A stretch of 64,000 nt of DNA from an uncultured Candidatus Saccharibacteria bacterium. GTDB lineage: Bacteria > Patescibacteriota > Minisyncoccia > Phycocordibacterales > JACOZG01. Both the position numbers and the translations under genes were made by a program. The notes under the pieces are model-generated. The model did no database searches. It was not told where the DNA came from and was given only the letters and a program-made list of their open reading frames with translations. The DNA lies in contig CAYWPU010000002.1 in assembly GCA_964460805.1 (NCBI GenBank), positions 18,663 to 82,662 of the forward strand, given 5' to 3'. Shown here piece after piece: positions 1 to 27,631 of this stretch (positions are counted from its first letter, which is position 1; each line of letters starts with the position of its first letter).

Positions 1-632
1 GTGGTGCTGGCGGCCAGGCTGGCTTGGGTATAGACCGGATCAAGCGTTATGCGCATCTCTTTGGCTTGGGCGAATTATCTGGCGGACCGTTCCCCGGCGA
101 GGCGGCAGGCGTAGTGCCCAGTCGTGAGTGGAAAGAATTAAACTTCAACGGCGAGAGCTGGCTGCTTGGCAACACTTACCACACGGCTATCGGCCAATAC
201 GGCTTCCTCGTTACGCCGCTCCAGATGGTCCGCGCTGTGGCGGCGCTCTCTAACGGCGGTCGCTTGCTCCGGCCCACCTTGCTGGCCGAGAGCGAGCAAG
301 CGCCAAGCTGGACAGAGATTGCTGGCATTGACCCGGCTGATCTAGAAATAATCAAAGAGGGGATGCGCTTGGCAGTGACAGAGGGCACGGCGAGCGGGCT
401 CAATCTGCCCACGCTAGAGATCGCAGCCAAGACCGGCACGGCTGAGCTGGGGACTACCAAAGAGCAAGTGCACTCGTGGGTAACGGGCTTCTTCCCTTAT
501 CGCAACCCGCGTTACGCATTTGCTGTAGTGATGGAACGCGCGCAACGCACTAATTTGGTTGGCGCCACTTACGTGATGCGGCAAGTTTTTGACCAGCTTG
601 CTATCACCGCGCCTGAGTATCTGGAGAATTAA
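1..632 (+). CDS. Penicillin-binding protein (PBP2/MrdA-like transpeptidase), C-terminal fragment; 5' end lies outside the window
   Basis: In-frame from the window start. Translation shows a transpeptidase C-terminal region with KTGTA (K-T-G motif) and a conserved GFFPY..NPRYA tail. Confidence 0.8.
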   Translation, partial: GAGGQAGLGIDRIKRYAHLFGLGELSGGPFPGEAAGVVPSREWKELNFNGESWLLGNTYHTAIGQYGFLVTPLQMVRAVAALSNGGRLLRPTLLAESEQAPSWTEIAGIDPADLEIIKEGMRLAVTEGTASGLNLPTLEIAAKTGTAELGTTKEQVHSWVTGFFPYRNPRYAFAVVMERAQRTNLVGATYVMRQVFDQLAITAPEYLEN

Positions 633-3035: not shown

Positions 3036-4560
3036 CAAGAGAGTCTGGTGGTTGCTGGCACTGGCGCTGGTTATTGTGATTGGTGGTGTGGTGGTTGCGG
3101 CGCGCAACGGCGAGGATAATGCTAATTTGATTGTCCTTGAGCCAGCCACACTAGAGCAGAGCGTAACCTTATCGGGGCAGGTCAAGCCGGCTGGTAAGGC
3201 GGATCTCGCTTTTGATCGTGCTGGACGCGTGGGTGCCGTTTTGGCCCAAGTGGGTGACCGGGTGGAGCTTGGCGCGGTGCTGGTGCGCTTGGCCAGTGGC
3301 ACTCTCTCGGCCGAGCTGGAGCGAGCTCAGGCTGACCTGGCCACAGAGCAGGCGCGCTTGGCCGAGCTGGAGCGTGGCGCCAGAGCCGAGGACTTGGCCG
3401 TGAGTCGGGCTGAGGTGGCGCGGCAGGAGGATGACTTTTTAGATAGTCAGAAGAATATGGTGTACGTTTTGCAAGACACCTTTGTGCGAGCCGATAATGC
3501 TCTGCGTTACGAGGCTGATCCGCTCTTCATCAGCCCGCGCAGTAGCTTGGCGCGTTTCGCCTTCAATACCAGCAACACTTCCCGGGCAGAGCGGGTGGCC
3601 GATTGGCGCAGCGACTTTGAGTACAAGATGGCCGATTGGCGCAATCAATTGCTTGCTCTCGGCGCTGGCAGTGACTTATCAGTTTATTATAGCCAGGCAA
3701 AGGCGATTCTCTTAGAGATGCAAGTTGGCTTTGATGATCTGGCTTATCTGGTTAATCTTGTTCCCTCTAGCGACACAGCCAATGGGATCACTGGCTCTGA
3801 GGCTCGGACCAAGATCTCCGCGGCTCGGGCGGCAATCAGTGCCGCGCTGGATGGCCTGGAGAGCGGCTGGCGGGACTATAATAGCTCTTGGAACGCTCTG
3901 GAGGTGGCCAAGCGGGAACTCTCGCTAGATTTGGCCGGTGCCTCGGCTGAGGAGGTCTCGGCCCAGGCCGCGCGAGTGCAGGCGGCCAGCGCCAGTGTGA
4001 GCGCCGCGCGGGCGGCCTTGGGTGAGTCGGTCTTGGTTGCGCCATTCCCGGCGTTGGTTACTTACCAAGAGGCGCGCGTGGGTGAGGTGGCAACTGCGGG
4101 AGTGGTGCTGGTTAAATTATCCGCCATTGATCCGTTTATTATAGAAGCCAATGTGCCGGAGGTAGATATTGTAAAAGTGAAGACGGGAGATATTGCTGCG
4201 GTTACGCTAGATGCTTACGGTCCCACGGTTGAGTTCCAGGCCACTGTTGGCCAGATTGATCCGGCTGAGACGGTGCTAGACGGCGTGCCGACTTATAAGA
4301 TTACTCTCCACTTCACCGCGCTTGATGAACGTATCCGTTCCGGCATGACAGCTAATATCTCACTTGCTACTGGCTTGCGTGAGGGCGTGCTAGCTGTGCC
4401 GCTCCGCGCGGTGAGCACCAGCTCTGGTCGCAGTACTGTGCGCGTTAAGAAAGGTGAAGAAATTTTTGAACAGGAAGTGGCGCTTGGCCTTGTCTCGTCT
4501 GACGGTCAAGTGGAAATTTTATCTGGTTTGCAGGCAGGAGATAAGGTGGTGATGCCTTAG
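2989..4560 (+). CDS. HlyD/MFP-family periplasmic adaptor protein (efflux or secretion adaptor) with no adjacent transporter partner
   Basis: N-terminal TM helix, a biotinyl/lipoyl-like beta hairpin (VKPAGKADL...VLVRL), a long coiled coil and a C-terminal beta-barrel. The start may instead be MKKII near 3010. Confidence 0.7.
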   Translation: MLKKLTKMKKIISLRSKRVWWLLALALVIVIGGVVVAARNGEDNANLIVLEPATLEQSVTLSGQVKPAGKADLAFDRAGRVGAVLAQVGDRVELGAVLVRLASGTLSAELERAQADLATEQARLAELERGARAEDLAVSRAEVARQEDDFLDSQKNMVYVLQDTFVRADNALRYEADPLFISPRSSLARFAFNTSNTSRAERVADWRSDFEYKMADWRNQLLALGAGSDLSVYYSQAKAILLEMQVGFDDLAYLVNLVPSSDTANGITGSEARTKISAARAAISAALDGLESGWRDYNSSWNALEVAKRELSLDLAGASAEEVSAQAARVQAASASVSAARAALGESVLVAPFPALVTYQEARVGEVATAGVVLVKLSAIDPFIIEANVPEVDIVKVKTGDIAAVTLDAYGPTVEFQATVGQIDPAETVLDGVPTYKITLHFTALDERIRSGMTANISLATGLREGVLAVPLRAVSTSSGRSTVRVKKGEEIFEQEVALGLVSSDGQVEILSGLQAGDKVVMP

Positions 4561-6463: not shown

Positions 6464-8167
6464 ATGGCGGTTAATCCGGTCTTGCGGATAAGGCTTATTT
6501 CTCTTGCGATTTTTCTTTTTTCTGTGTTGCTTATTGCGCGCTTATTTTTTCTCCAAGTTGTTAAGAGTGATTTCTATACCGAGCGGGCGGATCGCCAGTA
6601 TCAGCGTCCGGCTGCAACTCTGGCCGAGCGAGGAGTGATCTCTTTCCGGCAAAAAGATGGACAATTGGTCTCGGCGGCCAGCATGCGTGATGGCTTCCTT
6701 GCCGCCATCAATCCCAGAGTTTTGCAGAATCCGGAAGCTGTCTATGAGCGCCTGTCGTCACTAGTTGATCTAGACCGCGATGTTTTCTCTCGGGCCACGC
6801 AGGCCAATGCTACTCACAGAGAGATTGCGACCAAACTGAACGAGAAGCAGGCCGAGACGATCAAGAGCTGGGAGATCCCAGGCCTCGGTGTGCTCAAGAG
6901 CCGCTGGCGCTTCTATCCCGCAGGCCGCACCGCCAGCCACGTGCTGGGCTTGGTCAATTATGAGGGAGAGGGAGTCTATGGTTTAGAAAAAGAATATGAT
7001 GATGTGCTGGTGCGTGATGAAGATCAGACCTTTAGCAGTTTCCTCGCAGAAGTATTATCAGACGTGGGTAGCGCCTTGTTTAGCCGCGACACTAACCAAA
7101 CAGAAGCGGATCTCGTTTTGACTATTGAACCAGTGGTCCAAGATACGCTGGAGACCGAGCTCTCTGCGCTCAAGGATAAGTACAATGCCGAGTCTGCCGG
7201 GGCGGTGATCATGGATCCGGTGACGGGCGAGATTATCGCTATGGCGGCCTTGCCCGACTTTGACCCCGGCGCGAGGCAGAGCAGCTTGGAGCCGCTGGCT
7301 AATCCGTTGGTAGAACGGACTTATGAAATGGGCTCCACCTTCAAGCCCCTCACCATGGCCGCGGCGCTGGATGCTGGCGTGGTTAAGGCCTCTACCACGT
7401 ATGATGACCGTGGCACGCTCACGATTAATAACAAAGTGATCAGCAATTATGACGGTCGAGCACGAGGCGTGGTGCCCATGCAGGAGGTGCTCAACCAGTC
7501 GCTCAATACCGGAGTGGTGTTTGCGATGCAGAAATTAGGTCAGGAACGCTTCCGCAATTATGTGGTCAATTTTGGCCTTACCGAGGAGACTGGCGTAGAC
7601 TTGCCTGGCGAGGTGGTGGGGAATAATAATAACTTGCTCCAGAGTAACCGCGAGATTGAATATGCCACCGCCTCATACGGCCAGGGGATCACAGTTACGC
7701 CACTAGCTCTAACTCGTGCTCTGGCCGCGCTGGCTAACGGTGGTCGCTTGGTGCGTCCGCACGTGGTGGCCGAGATCAAGCGCCATGACTCCAAACTCTC
7801 CGAGCTCACACAGCCTGAGCTGGGTCGGCAGGTCATCAAGCCGGAGACTAGCAAGGAGATCACCCGGATGCTGGTGGAGGTGGTAGACACAGCGCTGGTG
7901 GGCGGCAAGTACAAGATGGATCGTTATCGCATTGCGGCTAAGACAGGCACCGCGCAACAAGCACGCCTCTCCGGCGGCGGTTACGATCCGGAGCGCTTCT
8001 TGCACTCCTTCTTTGGCTATTTCCCCGCCAGTGATCCGCAGTTTATTATTTTTATCTATTTAGTCCGGCCGATTGGCGCGCGTTATGCCTCTGACACTTT
8101 ATCAGCGCCATTTATGTCTCTGACTAAATTTTTGCTAAACTATTATAATGTTCCGCCAGATCGCTAA
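6464..8167 (+). CDS. ftsI: Peptidoglycan D,D-transpeptidase FtsI (class B PBP)
   Basis: N-terminal TM helix, dimerisation domain and transpeptidase motifs STFKP (SxxK), SxN and KTGTA. Confidence 0.9.
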   Translation: MAVNPVLRIRLISLAIFLFSVLLIARLFFLQVVKSDFYTERADRQYQRPAATLAERGVISFRQKDGQLVSAASMRDGFLAAINPRVLQNPEAVYERLSSLVDLDRDVFSRATQANATHREIATKLNEKQAETIKSWEIPGLGVLKSRWRFYPAGRTASHVLGLVNYEGEGVYGLEKEYDDVLVRDEDQTFSSFLAEVLSDVGSALFSRDTNQTEADLVLTIEPVVQDTLETELSALKDKYNAESAGAVIMDPVTGEIIAMAALPDFDPGARQSSLEPLANPLVERTYEMGSTFKPLTMAAALDAGVVKASTTYDDRGTLTINNKVISNYDGRARGVVPMQEVLNQSLNTGVVFAMQKLGQERFRNYVVNFGLTEETGVDLPGEVVGNNNNLLQSNREIEYATASYGQGITVTPLALTRALAALANGGRLVRPHVVAEIKRHDSKLSELTQPELGRQVIKPETSKEITRMLVEVVDTALVGGKYKMDRYRIAAKTGTAQQARLSGGGYDPERFLHSFFGYFPASDPQFIIFIYLVRPIGARYASDTLSAPFMSLTKFLLNYYNVPPDR

Positions 8168-11631: not shown

Positions 11632-12600
11632 ATGCTAGTAGATGATATCCAGATCAGAGTAAGCGGTGGCAAGGGCGGCCGGGGAGCTGTCGCCTTTGAG
11701 CGCAATAAGCTCGCGCTCGGGCCCACTGGCGCGCGCGGCGGTAATGGCGGGAGCGTCTATATGGAAGGTGTTTCTGATATTGGCGCGTTGGCCCAGTTTA
11801 GGTTTGAGAAAGAGAAGCAAGCCGAGGACGGCGGCCCGGGCCAGAGGCAGTACCGCGATGGTGCCACAGGCAAAGATGTGACCCTGCAAGTGCCGGTGGG
11901 GACTGTCATCCACAATCTTACCACCGGCTTTGACCAGGAGATCACCAAGCTGGGGGAACGCGTGCTGGTGGCCAAGGGCGGCTTGGGTGGCCATGGCAAT
12001 TTCTACTTCCGCTCTTCTCGCAATACTTCGCCCGAGCAGTTCCAGCCTGGCTTGCCCGGTGAGGATTTCCAGCTCCGGCTGGAGCTCAAGCTCATCGCTG
12101 ATGTGGGCTTTGTGGGCCTGCCGAACGTGGGCAAATCTAGCTTATTAAACGAGCTGACTAATGCCAAGAGCAAAGTGGCTAACTACCAATTCACCACGCT
12201 TGAGCCGCACCTGGGCGCTTATTACGGCTTGATTCTGGCTGACTTGCCGGGCTTGATAGAAGGCGCGGCGGAGGGCCGGGGATTGGGGATCAAGTTCTTG
12301 CGTCATGTGGAGCGGACTAAGCATATTTTCCACTTTATTTCTGCAGAATCTCTTGACCCACTGACTGATTATAAAATAATCAGAACGGAATTAGAAAATT
12401 ATAATGCAGAATTATTAACTAAATCAGAGACAGTTTTCTTGACCAAAGCTGATCTAGTAACAGAGAAAGAGTTAGAGAAAAAAATAAAGTTATTAGCAAA
12501 GAATAAAATCGCTGTTCTGCCAATCTCTGTGCTGGACGACGAGAGCATCAAGCAAGTCAAGAAAATTCTAGATAAATTAGTAAAAGAGAAAACCGCTTGA
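11632..12600 (+). CDS. obg: GTPase Obg/CgtA
   Basis: Obg-fold N-terminal Gly-rich region (VSGGKGGRGAVAFE, GGNGGSV) and G-domain motifs GFVGLPNVGKSS and DLPGLIEGA. Confidence 0.9.
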   Translation: MLVDDIQIRVSGGKGGRGAVAFERNKLALGPTGARGGNGGSVYMEGVSDIGALAQFRFEKEKQAEDGGPGQRQYRDGATGKDVTLQVPVGTVIHNLTTGFDQEITKLGERVLVAKGGLGGHGNFYFRSSRNTSPEQFQPGLPGEDFQLRLELKLIADVGFVGLPNVGKSSLLNELTNAKSKVANYQFTTLEPHLGAYYGLILADLPGLIEGAAEGRGLGIKFLRHVERTKHIFHFISAESLDPLTDYKIIRTELENYNAELLTKSETVFLTKADLVTEKELEKKIKLLAKNKIAVLPISVLDDESIKQVKKILDKLVKEKTA

Positions 12601-12648
12601 CACGATTGTTATACTGGTAGAGAGGTAAAAAGAAGGGAGGTGATAGCC

Positions 12649-12696
12649 ATGAACATCGCATACGATTGCGATTGTGGCGGCGGTTGCGGCGGCTAA
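12649..12696 (+). CDS. Tiny ORF encoding the Cys/Gly-rich 15-aa peptide MNIAYDCDCGGGCGG
   Basis: Near-perfect SD AAGGGAGGTGA five nt before ATG; stop TAA; a perfect 14-bp terminator hairpin 20 nt downstream. No terminator separates it from obg. Confidence 0.4.
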   Translation: MNIAYDCDCGGGCGG

Positions 12697-12717
12697 GGCC
12701 CAGGCATCCGTTCCCCG

Positions 12718-12757
12718 GCCAACAGCGTTGCAATTGCAACGCTGTTGGCTTTATTTT
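12718..12757 (+). terminator. Rho-independent terminator
   Basis: gccaacagcgttgc-aatt-gcaacgctgttggc followed by TTTATTTT. Confidence 0.8.
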
Positions 12758-12801
12758 GACTTTTTCTTTGCTCTATAATTCATGATAGACTGAGGGAAAT
12801 T

Positions 12802-13851
12802 ATGACTATTTTGTATATCTTAATTGGTTTGATTGCTGGCGGGGGATTGGTTTGGCTCTTGCTCCAGAGCAAACAGCGCGCCACTGGGCCGGAAGATAAT
12901 CAAGGCTTCCTCCTCATGCAGAACCAGCTCAACGAACTAACGCGCGTCCTAGACAGCAAGCTTTCTGAATCAACCAAAACTCTACACGATTCTGTCCGGA
13001 CGCAATTTGGCGAGTCGCAGAAGTTGATTAGAGATATCACCAAAGAACTGACTCAAGTGCAGGAGACGGGCAAGCGCGTAGAGGGCTTTGCGGATCAGCT
13101 CCAGAGCCTGCAGGATATCTTGAAGAATCCTAAGCAGAGAGGCATCTTGGGCGAGTATTATCTGGAGACTTTGCTCAAGAACGTGCTGCCCACTGGCTCT
13201 TACCAGATGCAATACGCGTTTAAAGACAGCACGATTGTGGATGCTGTGGTCTTTGTGAAAGATAAAATCATCCCGATTGACTCTAAGTTCTCGCTAGAGA
13301 ATTATAATAGATTAGTGGAAGAGCGTGACAGCGTAGAGAGGGAGAGACTAGAAAAAACTTTCAAGACTGATCTCAAGAATCGGATAGACGAAACAGCTAA
13401 ATATGTGAAGCCGAGCGAGGGCACCATGGACTTTGCCTTCATGTTCATCCCGCACGAGGCGATCTATTATGATCTCTTGGTCTCGCAAGTAGGCGCGCTC
13501 AAGGTCAATACTCGTGATTTGATAGAATATGCGTTTAAAGAGAAGCACGTGATCATTGTCTCGCCCACGTCTTTTCTCGCTTATCTCCAGACAGTCCTGC
13601 AGGGCTTGAAGGCTTTGCAGATAGAGGAGTCGGCTAAATTAATCAGGGATAGAGTAGAGGATCTTGGCAAGCATATCGCCGCCTATGAGCAATACTTTAG
13701 CAAGTTGGGAGCAAGTCTCGGTACTACTGTCAGTCACTATAACTCAGCGTATAAAGAACTGAAAAAGATTGATAAAGACGTGGCACGGGTGACTGGCGCT
13801 AGCAGTCAGATGGAGCCGCTAGCGCTAGAGAGGCCGAGCCTGGACGATTAG
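12802..13851 (+). CDS. rmuC: DNA recombination protein RmuC
   Basis: N-terminal TM helix, long coiled coil and a C-terminal RmuC nuclease-like domain (DAVVFVKDKIIPIDSKF...); TATAAT and SD lie upstream. Confidence 0.85.
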   Translation: MTILYILIGLIAGGGLVWLLLQSKQRATGPEDNQGFLLMQNQLNELTRVLDSKLSESTKTLHDSVRTQFGESQKLIRDITKELTQVQETGKRVEGFADQLQSLQDILKNPKQRGILGEYYLETLLKNVLPTGSYQMQYAFKDSTIVDAVVFVKDKIIPIDSKFSLENYNRLVEERDSVERERLEKTFKTDLKNRIDETAKYVKPSEGTMDFAFMFIPHEAIYYDLLVSQVGALKVNTRDLIEYAFKEKHVIIVSPTSFLAYLQTVLQGLKALQIEESAKLIRDRVEDLGKHIAAYEQYFSKLGASLGTTVSHYNSAYKELKKIDKDVARVTGASSQMEPLALERPSLDD

Positions 13852-19289: not shown

Positions 19290-19817
19290 ATGGCGCAGCC
19301 AGAGCTTAAAGAATGTACGGTTGGCTACCTCCTTAGGGAGAGTAGTCAAGGGACGCAGACCCTGCTTGGTTTGCGAGATTCTCGCCGCTTCAGCGGTATC
19401 TGGAATGGTCCGGGCGGCGGGAGGGAGGAAGGAGAGACGATTATTGACTGCCTGGCGCGCGAGTTGCGAGAAGAGATTGGCGTTGAGATTAATAAGAAAT
19501 CAGTCCGGCATTTTGCCACAGCTGGGTTCTACCATCCCAATGGTGATAACTGGCAGCTTGAGTGGCTGGTACACTTCCTTACCATTACAGATTGGACAGG
19601 GGAACCCCGTCTGGTGGAAGGTTTCAGCATACTGGAATGGTTCCTGCTTGATCGATTGCCTTTCCGTCAGATGATGGCCGATCAGGTAGCCTGGTTGCCG
19701 TTGGCGCTCAGCAATGAGAACGGCCGTTTGTTGCAAGTGAAGATCTTTTATGGCGATCGGGACGCCAGAGTAATCGTCAAGGGAGATTGGGAATTTGTTC
19801 CAAAGGGTGGGCATTGA
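19290..19817 (+). CDS. NUDIX hydrolase (MutT-like)
   Basis: Nudix box GGGREEGETIIDCLARELREEIGVE. Confidence 0.85.
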   Translation: MAQPELKECTVGYLLRESSQGTQTLLGLRDSRRFSGIWNGPGGGREEGETIIDCLARELREEIGVEINKKSVRHFATAGFYHPNGDNWQLEWLVHFLTITDWTGEPRLVEGFSILEWFLLDRLPFRQMMADQVAWLPLALSNENGRLLQVKIFYGDRDARVIVKGDWEFVPKGGH

Positions 19818-19860: not shown

Positions 19861-20976
19861 TTATTTTATCAACCCTAACCCAAACACTTTCTCAAACTCG
19901 CGCCAGGTTTTCTTGTTATCTGGCAAGATGGTGAGCGCTTTAGCTGTGTTCAGATCGTCATTAATTGCTTCCAGAAATTGCTGTTTCAAATCTTGATTAA
20001 CCTCTTCGCCCTCGGGCAGATTTTCTATTTTCTTTTTCAGTCTCTCGTAGCCGGTCTGCGCCGCTTGGATTGCTTCCCAGGTAAAATTAATAGTTGTGCG
20101 ATACTTGGCCTGCAAGAGCCAGTATCGGTAAGCCAGCGGCGAGATATTTTTCTCTTCTAAACTCCTGAGTGTAATAAAATTGTTGAGGCTCTTGCTCATT
20201 TTCTCGTCTTGCACGTTCATAAAGCCGCCATGCAGCCAGTAGCGCGCCAGCGGTACGCCGTGGGCCGTTTCGCTCTGGGCAAGCTCGTTCTCGTGATGAG
20301 GGAAAATCAGATCCGTGCCGCCGGTGTGGATGTCTACCGTCTGGCCCAGTGTGGCGCTGATCATCGCCGAGCACTCAATATGCCAGCCTGGTCGGCCTCG
20401 CCCAAACGGCGCATCCCAAGCCACGCCAGCGTCTTCGTCTTTCTCAAATTTCCAGAGGGCGAAATTTTCATCGCCAGAGGCACTTTGCGCTCCCAGACGG
20501 CCAGATAAAGCCCCGTAATTTTTCGCTTCTCTAATGTCAAAATAGAGGCCATCAGGGGCAATGTAGGCCGCTTTTTTGGCTAGCAAGGCCTCTATTAACG
20601 TGATCATGCTATTTATGTATTCAGTGGCATGTGGTGTAATATTAGGCTTGAGAATATTTAGTTTTGCCAGATCTTGCCAGAACAAATCTTCAAATTTTTT
20701 TGTATATTCTGGTAAGGGGATATTTTGCTCGCGACTCGCTTTGATTGTTTTATCATCCACGTCCGTGATGTTCATCACTTGCTTCACCTCATAATCATTA
20801 AACTCTAAAACGCGGCGCAAGATATCATTAAAAATATAAGTCCGGAGATTGCCGATGTGCGCGTAATCATAAACTGTTGGCCCGCAGGCGTAGATAGAAA
20901 CTGCCCGCTCGCCCGGCGGGGGAGTGAAGGCTTCTTTCTGCCTCGTGAGAGTGTTGTAGAGTTTGATCACAGCCAT
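19861..20976 (-). CDS. cysS: Cysteinyl-tRNA synthetase, short form (371 aa; C-terminal anticodon-binding region absent)
   Basis: CGPTVYDYAHIGN (HIGH), zinc-site Cys residues and KMSKS are present. The protein ends soon after the catalytic core. Confidence 0.9.
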   Translation of the reverse strand: MAVIKLYNTLTRQKEAFTPPPGERAVSIYACGPTVYDYAHIGNLRTYIFNDILRRVLEFNDYEVKQVMNITDVDDKTIKASREQNIPLPEYTKKFEDLFWQDLAKLNILKPNITPHATEYINSMITLIEALLAKKAAYIAPDGLYFDIREAKNYGALSGRLGAQSASGDENFALWKFEKDEDAGVAWDAPFGRGRPGWHIECSAMISATLGQTVDIHTGGTDLIFPHHENELAQSETAHGVPLARYWLHGGFMNVQDEKMSKSLNNFITLRSLEEKNISPLAYRYWLLQAKYRTTINFTWEAIQAAQTGYERLKKKIENLPEGEEVNQDLKQQFLEAINDDLNTAKALTILPDNKKTWREFEKVFGLGLIK

Positions 20977-26476: not shown

Positions 26477-27631
26477 CTAAATCACCCCCTTCAGTCTTTC
26501 CAAACTCTCTTTTTTACCCAAAACACTAGCTACAGTAAACGGATCCGGGGACTTGGCAAGGCCGGTGAGCGCCACGCGCATGGGCCAGAGCACCTCCCCT
26601 CTCCCCTTCTCCGTGGCGTAGTCCCAGATCGCGGCTTTTATTTTTTCGGTAGTGAAATCAGTTTCTGGTATTTGCTCTAGTAATTTAATAACTGTTGGCA
26701 AGTGCTCTGTAGTTTTCAATAATTCTGGTGAGATATTTTCTGGTCTATTTGTGAAAAATTCATGTTCACTTTTCAGTCGCGCCACTTGCTCTGCTTCTGG
26801 CAGATTTTTTATATACTCTTTGTTATACCAATCTAATTTATCTGTGTTGAAAATAGCGCCGGACTTTTGCACTTCGGCTAGATCAAAATTTTTCACCAAT
26901 TCTTCTAAGCTTAAGATTTCCGGCAGATTCTTGACCTGCAGCGACCAGCCGAGCGTGGCGAGATAATTGATCATCGCTTCCGGCAAATATCCCAGCTTGG
27001 CATAGTCTGCCACTGCTGTAGCGCCATGTCTCTTGCTCAGCTTAGACCGATCTGGCGCGAGGATAAGCGGAATGTGCGCGTATTGTGGCCGCTCGCCGCC
27101 AAGCGCTTCTAGAATCAAAATCTGTCGTGGTGTATTAGCCAGGTGCTCTTCAGCCCGGATCACGTGTGATATCTTGAGATCCATGTCGTCAACCACAGAA
27201 GCAAAGTGATACACCGGCGATTCTAGATTGCGTGCGATAATAAAATCACCTAGTTCTTTAGTATCAAAGCTTACCTCGCCTTTAATCAGATCAGTAAAGC
27301 CGACCCGCTCCCCGGCACTGCGTAGCCGCACCGCTTCGCCATCTAAGTAAGCCTTATCTGCTTTAATTAACGCTTCTAGTTTGCTCTTGTAGAGCTCTGT
27401 GCGCTCTGATTGCCGGTAAAATTCATCATAATCTAATTTAAGCCAGGCAAAGCTGTCTAATATAGATTGCTCAAATTCTAGTTCAGAGCGCTCTTGGTCT
27501 GTGTCGTCTATGCGCAGGATAAATTTGCCATTTTTTTGCCTCGCAAAAAGATAGTTAAACAGGGCCGTGCGGGCGCCGCCGAGGTGCAGGTGGCCGGTGG
27601 GGCTGGGAGCAAAGCGGACGCGTGTGCTCAT
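26477..27631 (-). CDS. gltX: Glutamyl-tRNA synthetase (short form, 384 aa)
   Basis: PSPTGHLHLGGART (HIGH) and KLSKR (KMSKS) present. The protein ends after the anticodon-binding helix region. Confidence 0.9.
   Translation of the reverse strand: MSTRVRFAPSPTGHLHLGGARTALFNYLFARQKNGKFILRIDDTDQERSELEFEQSILDSFAWLKLDYDEFYRQSERTELYKSKLEALIKADKAYLDGEAVRLRSAGERVGFTDLIKGEVSFDTKELGDFIIARNLESPVYHFASVVDDMDLKISHVIRAEEHLANTPRQILILEALGGERPQYAHIPLILAPDRSKLSKRHGATAVADYAKLGYLPEAMINYLATLGWSLQVKNLPEILSLEELVKNFDLAEVQKSGAIFNTDKLDWYNKEYIKNLPEAEQVARLKSEHEFFTNRPENISPELLKTTEHLPTVIKLLEQIPETDFTTEKIKAAIWDYATEKGRGEVLWPMRVALTGLAKSPDPFTVASVLGKKESLERLKGVI

Follow-up and report, generated by a model that had tools for sequence, protein, structure and literature searches.

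The spacer between the genes obg and rmuC of an uncultured patescibacterium contains a strong Shine-Dalgarno (SD) sequence, an open reading frame (ORF) of only 15 codons and a hairpin, and it raises the question of whether an ORF this short is a gene and what its peptide could do. The stretch of DNA that we analysed (the window) comprises 64,000 nucleotides (nt) of contig CAYWPU010000002.1 in assembly GCA_964460805.1 (positions 18,663 to 82,662 of the forward strand), deposited as an uncultured Candidatus Saccharibacteria bacterium. Coordinates are those of the window unless another contig is named. We found that the SD-driven micro-ORF followed by a terminator, which had been described in an initial annotation of this DNA, is real. 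Furthermore, the micro-ORF is probably a real but unannotated micropeptide gene, judging from the signals around it and from its relatives. Beyond that first reading, we found a probable promoter of its own, signs of a leaderless background in the genome and a conserved coding core in a distant relative. The micro-ORF is best classed as kin to the unannotated Cys-rich micropeptide genes of bacteria.

Anatomy of the micro-ORF and its cassette

The micro-ORF lies on the plus strand at 12649-12696. It starts with ATG at 12649, runs for 15 codons to a TAA stop codon (12694-12696) and encodes MNIAYDCDCGGGCGG. This peptide contains three Cys (20% of its residues) and five Gly; the initial annotation was right about the Cys, and its count of six Gly needs to be corrected. 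The Cys residues are arranged as C-x-C-x3-C, with a single C-x-C, and we could read no signal peptide or hydrophobic stretch from the sequence. In addition, it is the sole Cys/Gly-rich short ORF of the window, and it had not been called as a gene in any of the assemblies that we examined.

The SD sequence AAGGGAGGTGAT (12633-12644, plus strand) comprises AAGGGAGGTGA (12633-12643) and GGAGGTGAT (12636-12644), and the spacer to the ATG is 5 nt long (tagcc, 12644-12648) when counted from AAGGGAGGTGA. SD sequences were scored by their predicted duplex with the 3′ tail of the 16S rRNA (the anti-SD), and a generic tail was assumed for the host. On this scale, the duplex of the micro-ORF has an energy of −23.3 kcal/mol, which is the lowest among the 1343 ATGs on both strands of the window. 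Meanwhile, the median is −1.8 kcal/mol for the 69 non-overlapping long ORFs. These values bear out the earlier claims that a tiny ORF follows the best anti-SD match of the whole window, 5 nt before its ATG, and that most genes here have weak SDs.

An extended −10 box, TGTTATACT, is located at 12607-12615 on the plus strand. It matches TGnTAnAnT, and the predicted transcription start site is at about 12622. Boxes of this type are five-fold enriched in the window, where 26 were observed against 5.3 expected within 60 nt upstream of 69 gene starts. Many of them lie only 6-10 nt before the start codon, for instance at the starts at 6464, 8148, 12802, 16169, 23914, 26449 (−), 37584 (−), 56279 (−), 57350 (−) and 59890. 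Given the standard spacing between a −10 box and the transcription start, these near-start boxes and the near absence of SDs suggest that the mRNAs of this genome are mostly leaderless or nearly so. In a genome that is mostly leaderless and poor in SDs, the leader and the 9-12-nt SD of the micro-ORF would be exceptional.

Two relatives that carry the element (L088 and L094, see below) have TGcTATAGT and TGtTATAGT, respectively, as the counterparts of TGTTATACT. A second extended −10 box, TGATAGACT (12783-12791, plus strand), lies 10 nt before the rmuC ATG at 12802, and a perfect TATAAT hexamer is found upstream of rmuC at 12774-12779. The rmuC box aligns with TGcTAAACT or TGtTAAACT in the same two relatives and in L093, L225 and L226. 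Both boxes are kept despite the saturation of synonymous sites between the genomes, and in relatives without the cassette only the rmuC box is left, directly after obg. Since a conserved −10 box stands between the obg stop codon and the SD, the micro-ORF appears to form a self-contained cassette, and it probably has a promoter of its own. The initial annotation regarded it as a 3′ cistron of obg. Read-through from obg is indeed possible, but the conserved box at 12607-12615 argues that co-transcription with obg is not the only source of its RNA. Furthermore, a TTGACA motif (12597-12602, plus strand) overlaps the obg stop codon and is invariant in the relatives, even where the obg stop codon lies elsewhere. 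Its spacing to the −10 box is only 7 nt in the window, and it is 16 nt to TATAGT in L226.

A C-rich spacer of 20 nt (12697-12716, plus strand) separates the stop codon from the hairpin. Folding predicts that it pairs with the G-rich 3′ half of the ORF, and it is not alignable between relatives. The intrinsic terminator (12717-12757, plus strand) is a G+C-rich stem-loop, composed of a 14-bp perfect stem, a G-T pair and an AATT loop, and the T-tract TTTATTTT follows immediately. The core of the hairpin is a 32-nt perfect palindrome (12718-12749), and the G-T pair widens the stem to 12717-12750. It is the only 15-pair terminator-like site between 9000 and 16000. Terminators of the same form, with unrelated sequences, occupy the same place in L094 and L088 (the loop of the latter has 9 nt). 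The palindrome and its T-tract agree with the perfect-stem terminator that had been reported after the ORF. In addition, no terminator had been seen between obg and the micro-ORF, and our search of the interval from the obg stop codon (12598-12600) to the micro-ORF found no hairpin either, the first one being that at 12717. Since obg lacks its own terminator, transcription of this gene would continue into the cassette as far as the hairpin at 12717-12757 and end there. We also considered a repeat or mobile element, and rejected it since the palindrome occurs only once in the window.

The identical sequence is present in independent Logan assemblies of four or more other samples. The region is thus genuine, and neither an assembly artefact nor a chimera. 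The contigs of these assemblies break exactly at the palindrome: contigs L081-L087, from at least four independent samples, end or start inside its 32 nt, at window positions 12720-12747. This is a de Bruijn-graph effect at self-complementary sequence, and terminators of this kind systematically fragment Logan assemblies. A further break was seen in L083 (SRR36307055), which comes from the same strain. This contig ends at the equivalent of 12658, that is, 10 nt into the micro-ORF and not at the palindrome, and the break could be caused by low coverage or by a strain polymorphism inside the micro-ORF.

Two other strong SDs were seen in the window. The second-best one, GGGGAGGTG (−20.5 kcal/mol), is found at 26581 on the minus strand before an in-frame internal ATG of a 384-residue ORF (26477-27631, minus strand), and it may point to an internal start or to a start that was wrongly called. 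Meanwhile, only one long ORF is preceded by a strong SD (AGAAAGGAGGTTGCC-ATG, −17.5 kcal/mol), namely that of a NUDIX hydrolase at 19290-19817 (plus strand). It adjoins the gene of cysteinyl-tRNA synthetase (19861-20976), which lies on the opposite strand.

Conservation in relatives

The Obg sequence places the window in the Paceibacteria/Parcubacteria group of Patescibacteria, and its best relatives in GTDB are at most 69% identical. Closer Obg proteins were taken from a large protein collection, and their contigs were fetched. A cluster with about 80% identity to the window Obg includes a member named Candidatus Nomurabacteria.

In L094, the Obg of which is 76% identical to that of the window (75% elsewhere in our comparisons), the obg-rmuC spacer is 187 nt long and its parts are in the same order as in the window, namely TGtTATAGT, GGAGGTG, ATG, an 18-codon ORF, TAG, a spacer, a 16-pair terminator, TGtTAAACT and rmuC. 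The homologous peptide is MKSTYGCECGGGCGGGGR, encoded at 4012-4068 of that contig. The two peptides share the core Y-x-C-[DE]-C-G-G-G-C-G-G; the three residues after Met all differ, and the C-terminal tails differ too. The other carrier, L088, has an Obg of 90% identity and keeps the SD AGAAGGGAGGTGA (13 nt, identical to the window), the 5-nt spacing, the ATG and the hairpin with its T-tract. However, its ORF encodes MLRRWAIPEIAHCQEGCACPHSDKTNIRVGAFSFL, a peptide of 35 amino acids (aa) with C-x3-C-x-C, so that three Cys stand within 7 residues in another order. The spacing between SD and ATG is retained in all three loci.

The differences between the window and L094 bear the mark of a coding sequence. 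Over the 11 codons of the core, 27 of the 33 nt are identical, with matches at 11 of 11 first, 10 of 11 second and 6 of 11 third codon positions. Five of the six differences fall on third positions, four of them synonymous and one changing Asp to Glu, and the sixth changes Asp to Gly. The hypergeometric probability of finding at least five of six differences on the 11 third positions is about 0.01. Meanwhile, third-position identity between the two genomes is only 48-50% in obg and rmuC, which means saturation, and the non-genic sequence is alignable only at the promoter boxes and the SD. Third-position-biased differences in the core, next to saturated third positions in the flanking genes, constitute a coding signature, which suggests that selection acts on the amino acids encoded, or at the very least on the identity of the codons, rather than on an RNA helix. 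The pair thus presents what is expected of a small gene: an SD at the proper distance, an open frame and a pattern of purifying selection. Furthermore, the SD, the spacing, the ORF core and the terminator recur at the same position in relatives with saturated synonymous sites, which is more than chance would give.

The initial annotation had proposed to look for the ORF, and especially its Cys positions, downstream of obg in related genomes, and it had taken a retained SD and hairpin with a frameshifted or absent ORF as a sign of an RNA element. All three Cys are kept in L094, where the ORF is intact. In L088, they are reordered within a different and longer ORF behind the retained SD and hairpin, which goes part of the way towards that sign, and most other relatives are without the element.

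Two other ways to read this DNA were rejected. The +1 frame contains a hydrophobic IAIVAAVAAAKA stretch, but it has no SD-led start codon, and the differences fall on its second positions, so it is not the constrained frame. In addition, the micro-ORF shares its reading frame with obg, and the interval between the obg TGA and the micro-ORF ATG is free of stop codons in the window (12598-12696) and in L088 (3051-3200), which would allow a fusion of Obg and the peptide by stop codon read-through. However, obg of L094 ends with TAA and is followed by a TAG in the frame that it, too, shares with the micro-ORF, so the fusion was rejected as a conserved feature. The shared frame is probably a coincidence.

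The obg-rmuC junction is a slot whose cargo varies, and the micro-ORF is one of the inserts that it can hold. The micro-ORF is absent from L089/L090, L093 and L095 (Obg 76-79% identical), where only 21-33 nt separate obg from rmuC, and in L091/L092 (79%) a terminator follows immediately 3′ of obg. The Obg proteins of L225, L226 and L227 are about 75% identical to that of the window and 93-95% identical to that of L094. In these genomes, the slot holds a 182-aa gene (L225/L227) or two genes of 151 and 174 aa (L226). None of these three cargo proteins matched Pfam, and no kinship between them and the micro-ORF is evident. Another relative, L228 (74-76%), has a different neighbouring gene. In the loci with the cassette or other cargo, the insert is bounded on the left by the conserved TTGACA and the promoter and on the right by the extended −10 box of rmuC. 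The presence of other cargo in sister genomes fits an accessory gene. Furthermore, identity to the window is 90% (L088) and 75% (L094) for Obg but 85% and 84% for RmuC, and these near-equal RmuC and unequal Obg identities hint at recombination at the junction.

Possible roles of the peptide

The reading that we favour, at about an even chance, is that of an accessory micro-gene with its own transcription and with efficient translation, in which the peptide is itself the product and most likely serves as a thiolate ligand. Transcription from the extended −10 box at 12607-12615, joined by read-through from obg, would give rise to a short RNA of about 135 nt (approximately 12622 to 12757), which would consist of a near-perfect SD, the 15-codon ORF and a very stable 3′ hairpin. 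The hairpin would stop transcription, insulate rmuC and shield the short message from 3′ degradation. The exceptional SD would lead to efficient translation and thereby to an abundant, soluble and acidic peptide of 15 residues, in which three closely spaced Cys in a flexible glycine context could bind as thiolates. Candidate roles are those of a mini-metallothionein, a metallochaperone or a thiol buffer, in soft metal or metalloid binding or in redox chemistry. Our best guess, by analogy, is that the thiolates of the peptide bind a metal or metalloid, or that it acts as a thiol buffer.

In ArsR-type C-x-C-x2-C sites, which sit inside folded regulators, three thiolates are suited to hold As(III), Cu(I), Cd or Hg in a trigonal geometry. 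The micropeptide likewise has three thiolates within 6-7 residues, but it consists of essentially nothing except the three Cys. To our knowledge, Patescibacteria lack the usual pathways for low-molecular-weight thiols, in keeping with their reduced metabolism. That some lineages have a ribosomally made thiol or metal buffer in their place, in which a dedicated mini-gene with the only strong SD of a largely leaderless genome yields a tri-Cys peptide of 15-18 residues in bulk as a functional analogue of glutathione, phytochelatin or metallothionein, is a long shot, and if true, the peptide would be among the shortest functional bacterial gene products. The copper metallothionein of Neurospora crassa (25 aa, PDB 1T2Y, GDCGCSGASSCNCGSGCSCSNCGSK) is also very short, gene-encoded, rich in Cys and Gly and devoid of hydrophobic residues. 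Both share the motif C-x-C-G-x-G-C, which is CNCGSGC in the Neurospora protein and CDCGGGC or CECGGGC in the micropeptides. However, the Neurospora protein has seven Cys and the micropeptide, which is bacterial, has three. The likeness is one of motif only, with no detectable sequence relationship, and a micropeptide monomer with three Cys could not build a metal-thiolate cluster.

Several results weigh against this favoured reading. The coding signature comes from one informative pair, the window and L094, and L088 does not conform to it. This closest relative encodes a different peptide, and its ORF crosses the hairpin, so that transcripts terminated there would have no stop codon. The element is present in only three loci, and the micro-ORF is absent from the slots of seven other relatives. 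Neither obg-rmuC synteny nor the micro-ORF was found downstream of obg in 80 GTDB Paceibacteria loci (Obg at most 69% identical), and since these loci lack the synteny, they are uninformative on conservation. Three Cys in 15 residues are few for a metallothionein and too few for a cluster. Metallothioneins are short, low-complexity chains rich in Cys (as C-x-C, C-C or C-x-x-C) and poor in aromatic residues; the micropeptide has one C-x-C and a C-x3-C spacing, but also a conserved Tyr. A profile of the window and L094 peptides searched against all PDB sequences gave no match at E ≤ 10, and thus no relationship to a metallothionein family was detected there. The 35-residue peptide of L088 matched nothing in a NCBIfam scan. 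In addition, conservation of the Cys and Gly codons is equally expected for a codon-sensing leader peptide.

Such a leader would be a cis-acting translational sensor, whose Cys and Gly codons report charged tRNA-Cys or tRNA-Gly, or simply the availability of ribosomes, with the peptide as a by-product. Termination at the hairpin would depend on where the ribosome stands on the ORF, and this would tune how much transcription from obg or from the promoter of the cassette reads through into rmuC and the MGMT-like gene that follows it. A precedent is mccA, the 7-codon gene of the microcin C precursor, where termination is controlled by the ribosome (PMC4231749). There, too, a tiny ORF with an efficient ribosome-binding site stands directly before an intrinsic terminator, which gives a short, abundant and stable transcript (PMC4231749). 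However, the micro-ORF is not followed by mccB-type or other maturation genes, its next gene has its own promoter, and we found no conserved upstream sequence that would weaken the terminator. Another precedent is offered by the Cys-rich small ORFs of mycobacteria, which are Cys-responsive attenuators (bioRxiv 10.1101/834739). These polycysteine ORFs are leaderless, contain consecutive Cys codons and have no terminator, and an RNA duplex controls the ribosome-binding site of genes for Cys metabolism (bioRxiv 10.1101/834739). They resemble the micro-ORF in being unannotated, Cys-rich and upstream of another gene in a leaderless-rich genome, but the micro-ORF is SD-led, its Cys codons are spaced, its terminator is strong, and its downstream genes are unrelated to cysteine.

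Codon identity is conserved in the core, as expected of a sensor, and the ORF of L088 crosses the hairpin, where translation would directly oppose termination. The leaders of all three loci were folded both with the 3′ arm of the terminator and without it, and the duplexes between the ORF and the 5′ arm were compared with those of dinucleotide shuffles. In the window, GGTTGCGGCG at the 3′ end of the ORF is able to pair over 10 bp with the loop and 5′ arm of the hairpin as long as the 3′ arm has yet to be transcribed, and this duplex is more stable than 95% of the shuffles. However, this alternative helix reaches only −19.7 kcal/mol with four G-U pairs, compared with −31 kcal/mol for the terminator, and it is not conserved: shuffles of equal or greater stability make up a fraction of 0.85 in L094 and of 0.21 in L088. 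No conserved antiterminator was thus found across the three leaders, in agreement with the initial annotation, which had considered an attenuator unsupported. In the window and L094, about 20 nt separate the stop codon from the stem, which is more than the footprint of a terminating ribosome covers. Moreover, rmuC has its own conserved promoter past the terminator, which is its sole promoter in relatives without the cassette, RmuC and the MGMT-like protein are unrelated to the supply of Cys or Gly, and a Cys sensor has no need for the conserved Tyr, acidic residue and GGG triplet. We therefore rejected a classical attenuator and see no support for a sensor of the polycysteine type, given the lack of a conserved antiterminator, downstream genes outside Cys/Gly metabolism and the self-promoted rmuC. 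Termination modulated by the ribosome as at mccA is possible, although without a conserved structural basis here. As a whole, the sensor is rather improbable in our judgement.

The peptide could also be functionless, either as the decaying remnant of slot cargo or as the by-product of an RNA element, made of the SD-like box and the hairpin, that serves the 3′ end or the stability of the obg mRNA. The slot is highly variable, few loci carry the element, and L088 retains the SD and hairpin but not the peptide. In addition, the region folds more stably than shuffled sequences (z = −4.2), mainly because of the terminator. However, first and second positions of the core are kept while third positions vary, and the non-coding sequence around it cannot be aligned at the same divergence, a pattern that is not expected of a remnant or an RNA helix. 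The constant SD-to-ATG spacing in the three loci also speaks against a functionless peptide, and no Rfam family matched. Rfam covariance models gave only sub-threshold microRNA-like matches to the palindrome in the window region (at most 21 bits, against gathering thresholds of at least 54) and nothing in the spacers of L088 and L094. We regard a functionless peptide as unlikely.

The Gly/Cys-rich core presumably resembles the cores of thiazole/oxazole-modified microcins such as microcin B17. The ORF could accordingly encode the precursor of a modified peptide, with Gly-Cys thiazoles as in microcin B17 or a modified C-terminus as in microcin C, and the enzymes for this would be encoded elsewhere in the genome. 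A tiny ORF, a strong ribosome-binding site and a downstream terminator form the over-production layout of precursors of ribosomally synthesised and post-translationally modified peptides (RiPPs) such as MccA (PMC4231749), and an accessory, patchy distribution is typical of such products. This layout shows how the gene is built and not what it is. However, no modification enzyme, protease or exporter adjoins any of the three loci, the peptide, with just 4-6 residues ahead of its first Cys, has no leader or recognition sequence, and no sign of export was seen. The neighbours at the three loci encode a Mur ligase, a YkuD/S11 peptidase, Obg, RmuC, the MGMT-like protein, GDH, L21, RecR and DnaB, and we also checked guanylate kinase, NUDIX, CysRS, CorA and an S41 peptidase. 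The window, L088 and L094 loci thus have housekeeping neighbours only, without genes for RiPP maturation, immunity or export. The earlier suggestion of a core-only peptide for modification finds no support in these genes, and we hold it to be very unlikely.

Returning to the accessory micro-gene that we favour, genes this short escape gene callers, and the small proteins of the Candidate Phyla Radiation are almost unstudied. With its clean signals (a promoter, the strongest SD, a terminator and codon-level conservation), the locus is a good, testable candidate for a functional peptide of 15 residues. It also lends itself to studying the coexistence of SD-led and leaderless translation in a single organism. 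Should the peptide be a thiol or metal ligand, it would represent a very cheap way for bacteria of minimal metabolism to buffer metals or redox state. If the regulatory reading is true, the locus would add a new case of a terminator whose control is linked to translation. Only three carriers of the micro-gene are known, so it may be of narrow biological reach.

Flanking genes and motif matches elsewhere

The gene obg (11632-12600, plus strand) encodes a GTPase of 322 aa, and Pfam GTP1_OBG/MMR_HSR1 is assigned to an identical protein. The gene rmuC (12802-13851, plus strand; 349 aa) lies outside the micro-gene, and Pfam RmuC is assigned to an identical protein.

Another tiny Cys-rich gene was seen beside obg in a different Paceibacteria genome. 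On L013 (2615-2692, minus strand), an SD-led ORF of 25 codons, MCPCGSGKKAIDCCFVSPETHEAKV, stands right after obg on the opposite strand and carries a zinc motif of the SEC-C type, C-P-C-G-S-G-K-K...C-C.

We also scanned metagenomes and viral contigs with the back-translated motif C-[DE]-C-G-G-G-C-G-G, and no further member of the family was found among the matches listed. The metagenome matches listed (L097-L216) are nearly all out-of-frame hydrophobic membrane segments of the VIAVVVVV type or GC-rich repeats, and one such V-I-A-V-V-V-V-V segment belongs to a conserved human-gut gene present in dozens of contigs. Such out-of-frame membrane segments are a caveat for motif searches of Gly/Cys-rich micro-ORFs. 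One match is of another kind: on L141 (Ga0307416_100319280, positions 113-202, minus strand), an unrelated and GC-rich contig of a metagenome, an SD-led ORF of 29 codons encodes MTETHVDGGCCGGGCECGGGCGGGIICGC with CECGGGCGGG. It lies directly downstream of a 189-aa ORF, which we take to resemble an ECF-type sigma factor with a Cys-rich C-terminus, and MTETHVDGGCCGGGCECGGGCGGGIICGC could be a partner of this protein, as a small Cys-rich anti-sigma factor or metal sensor.

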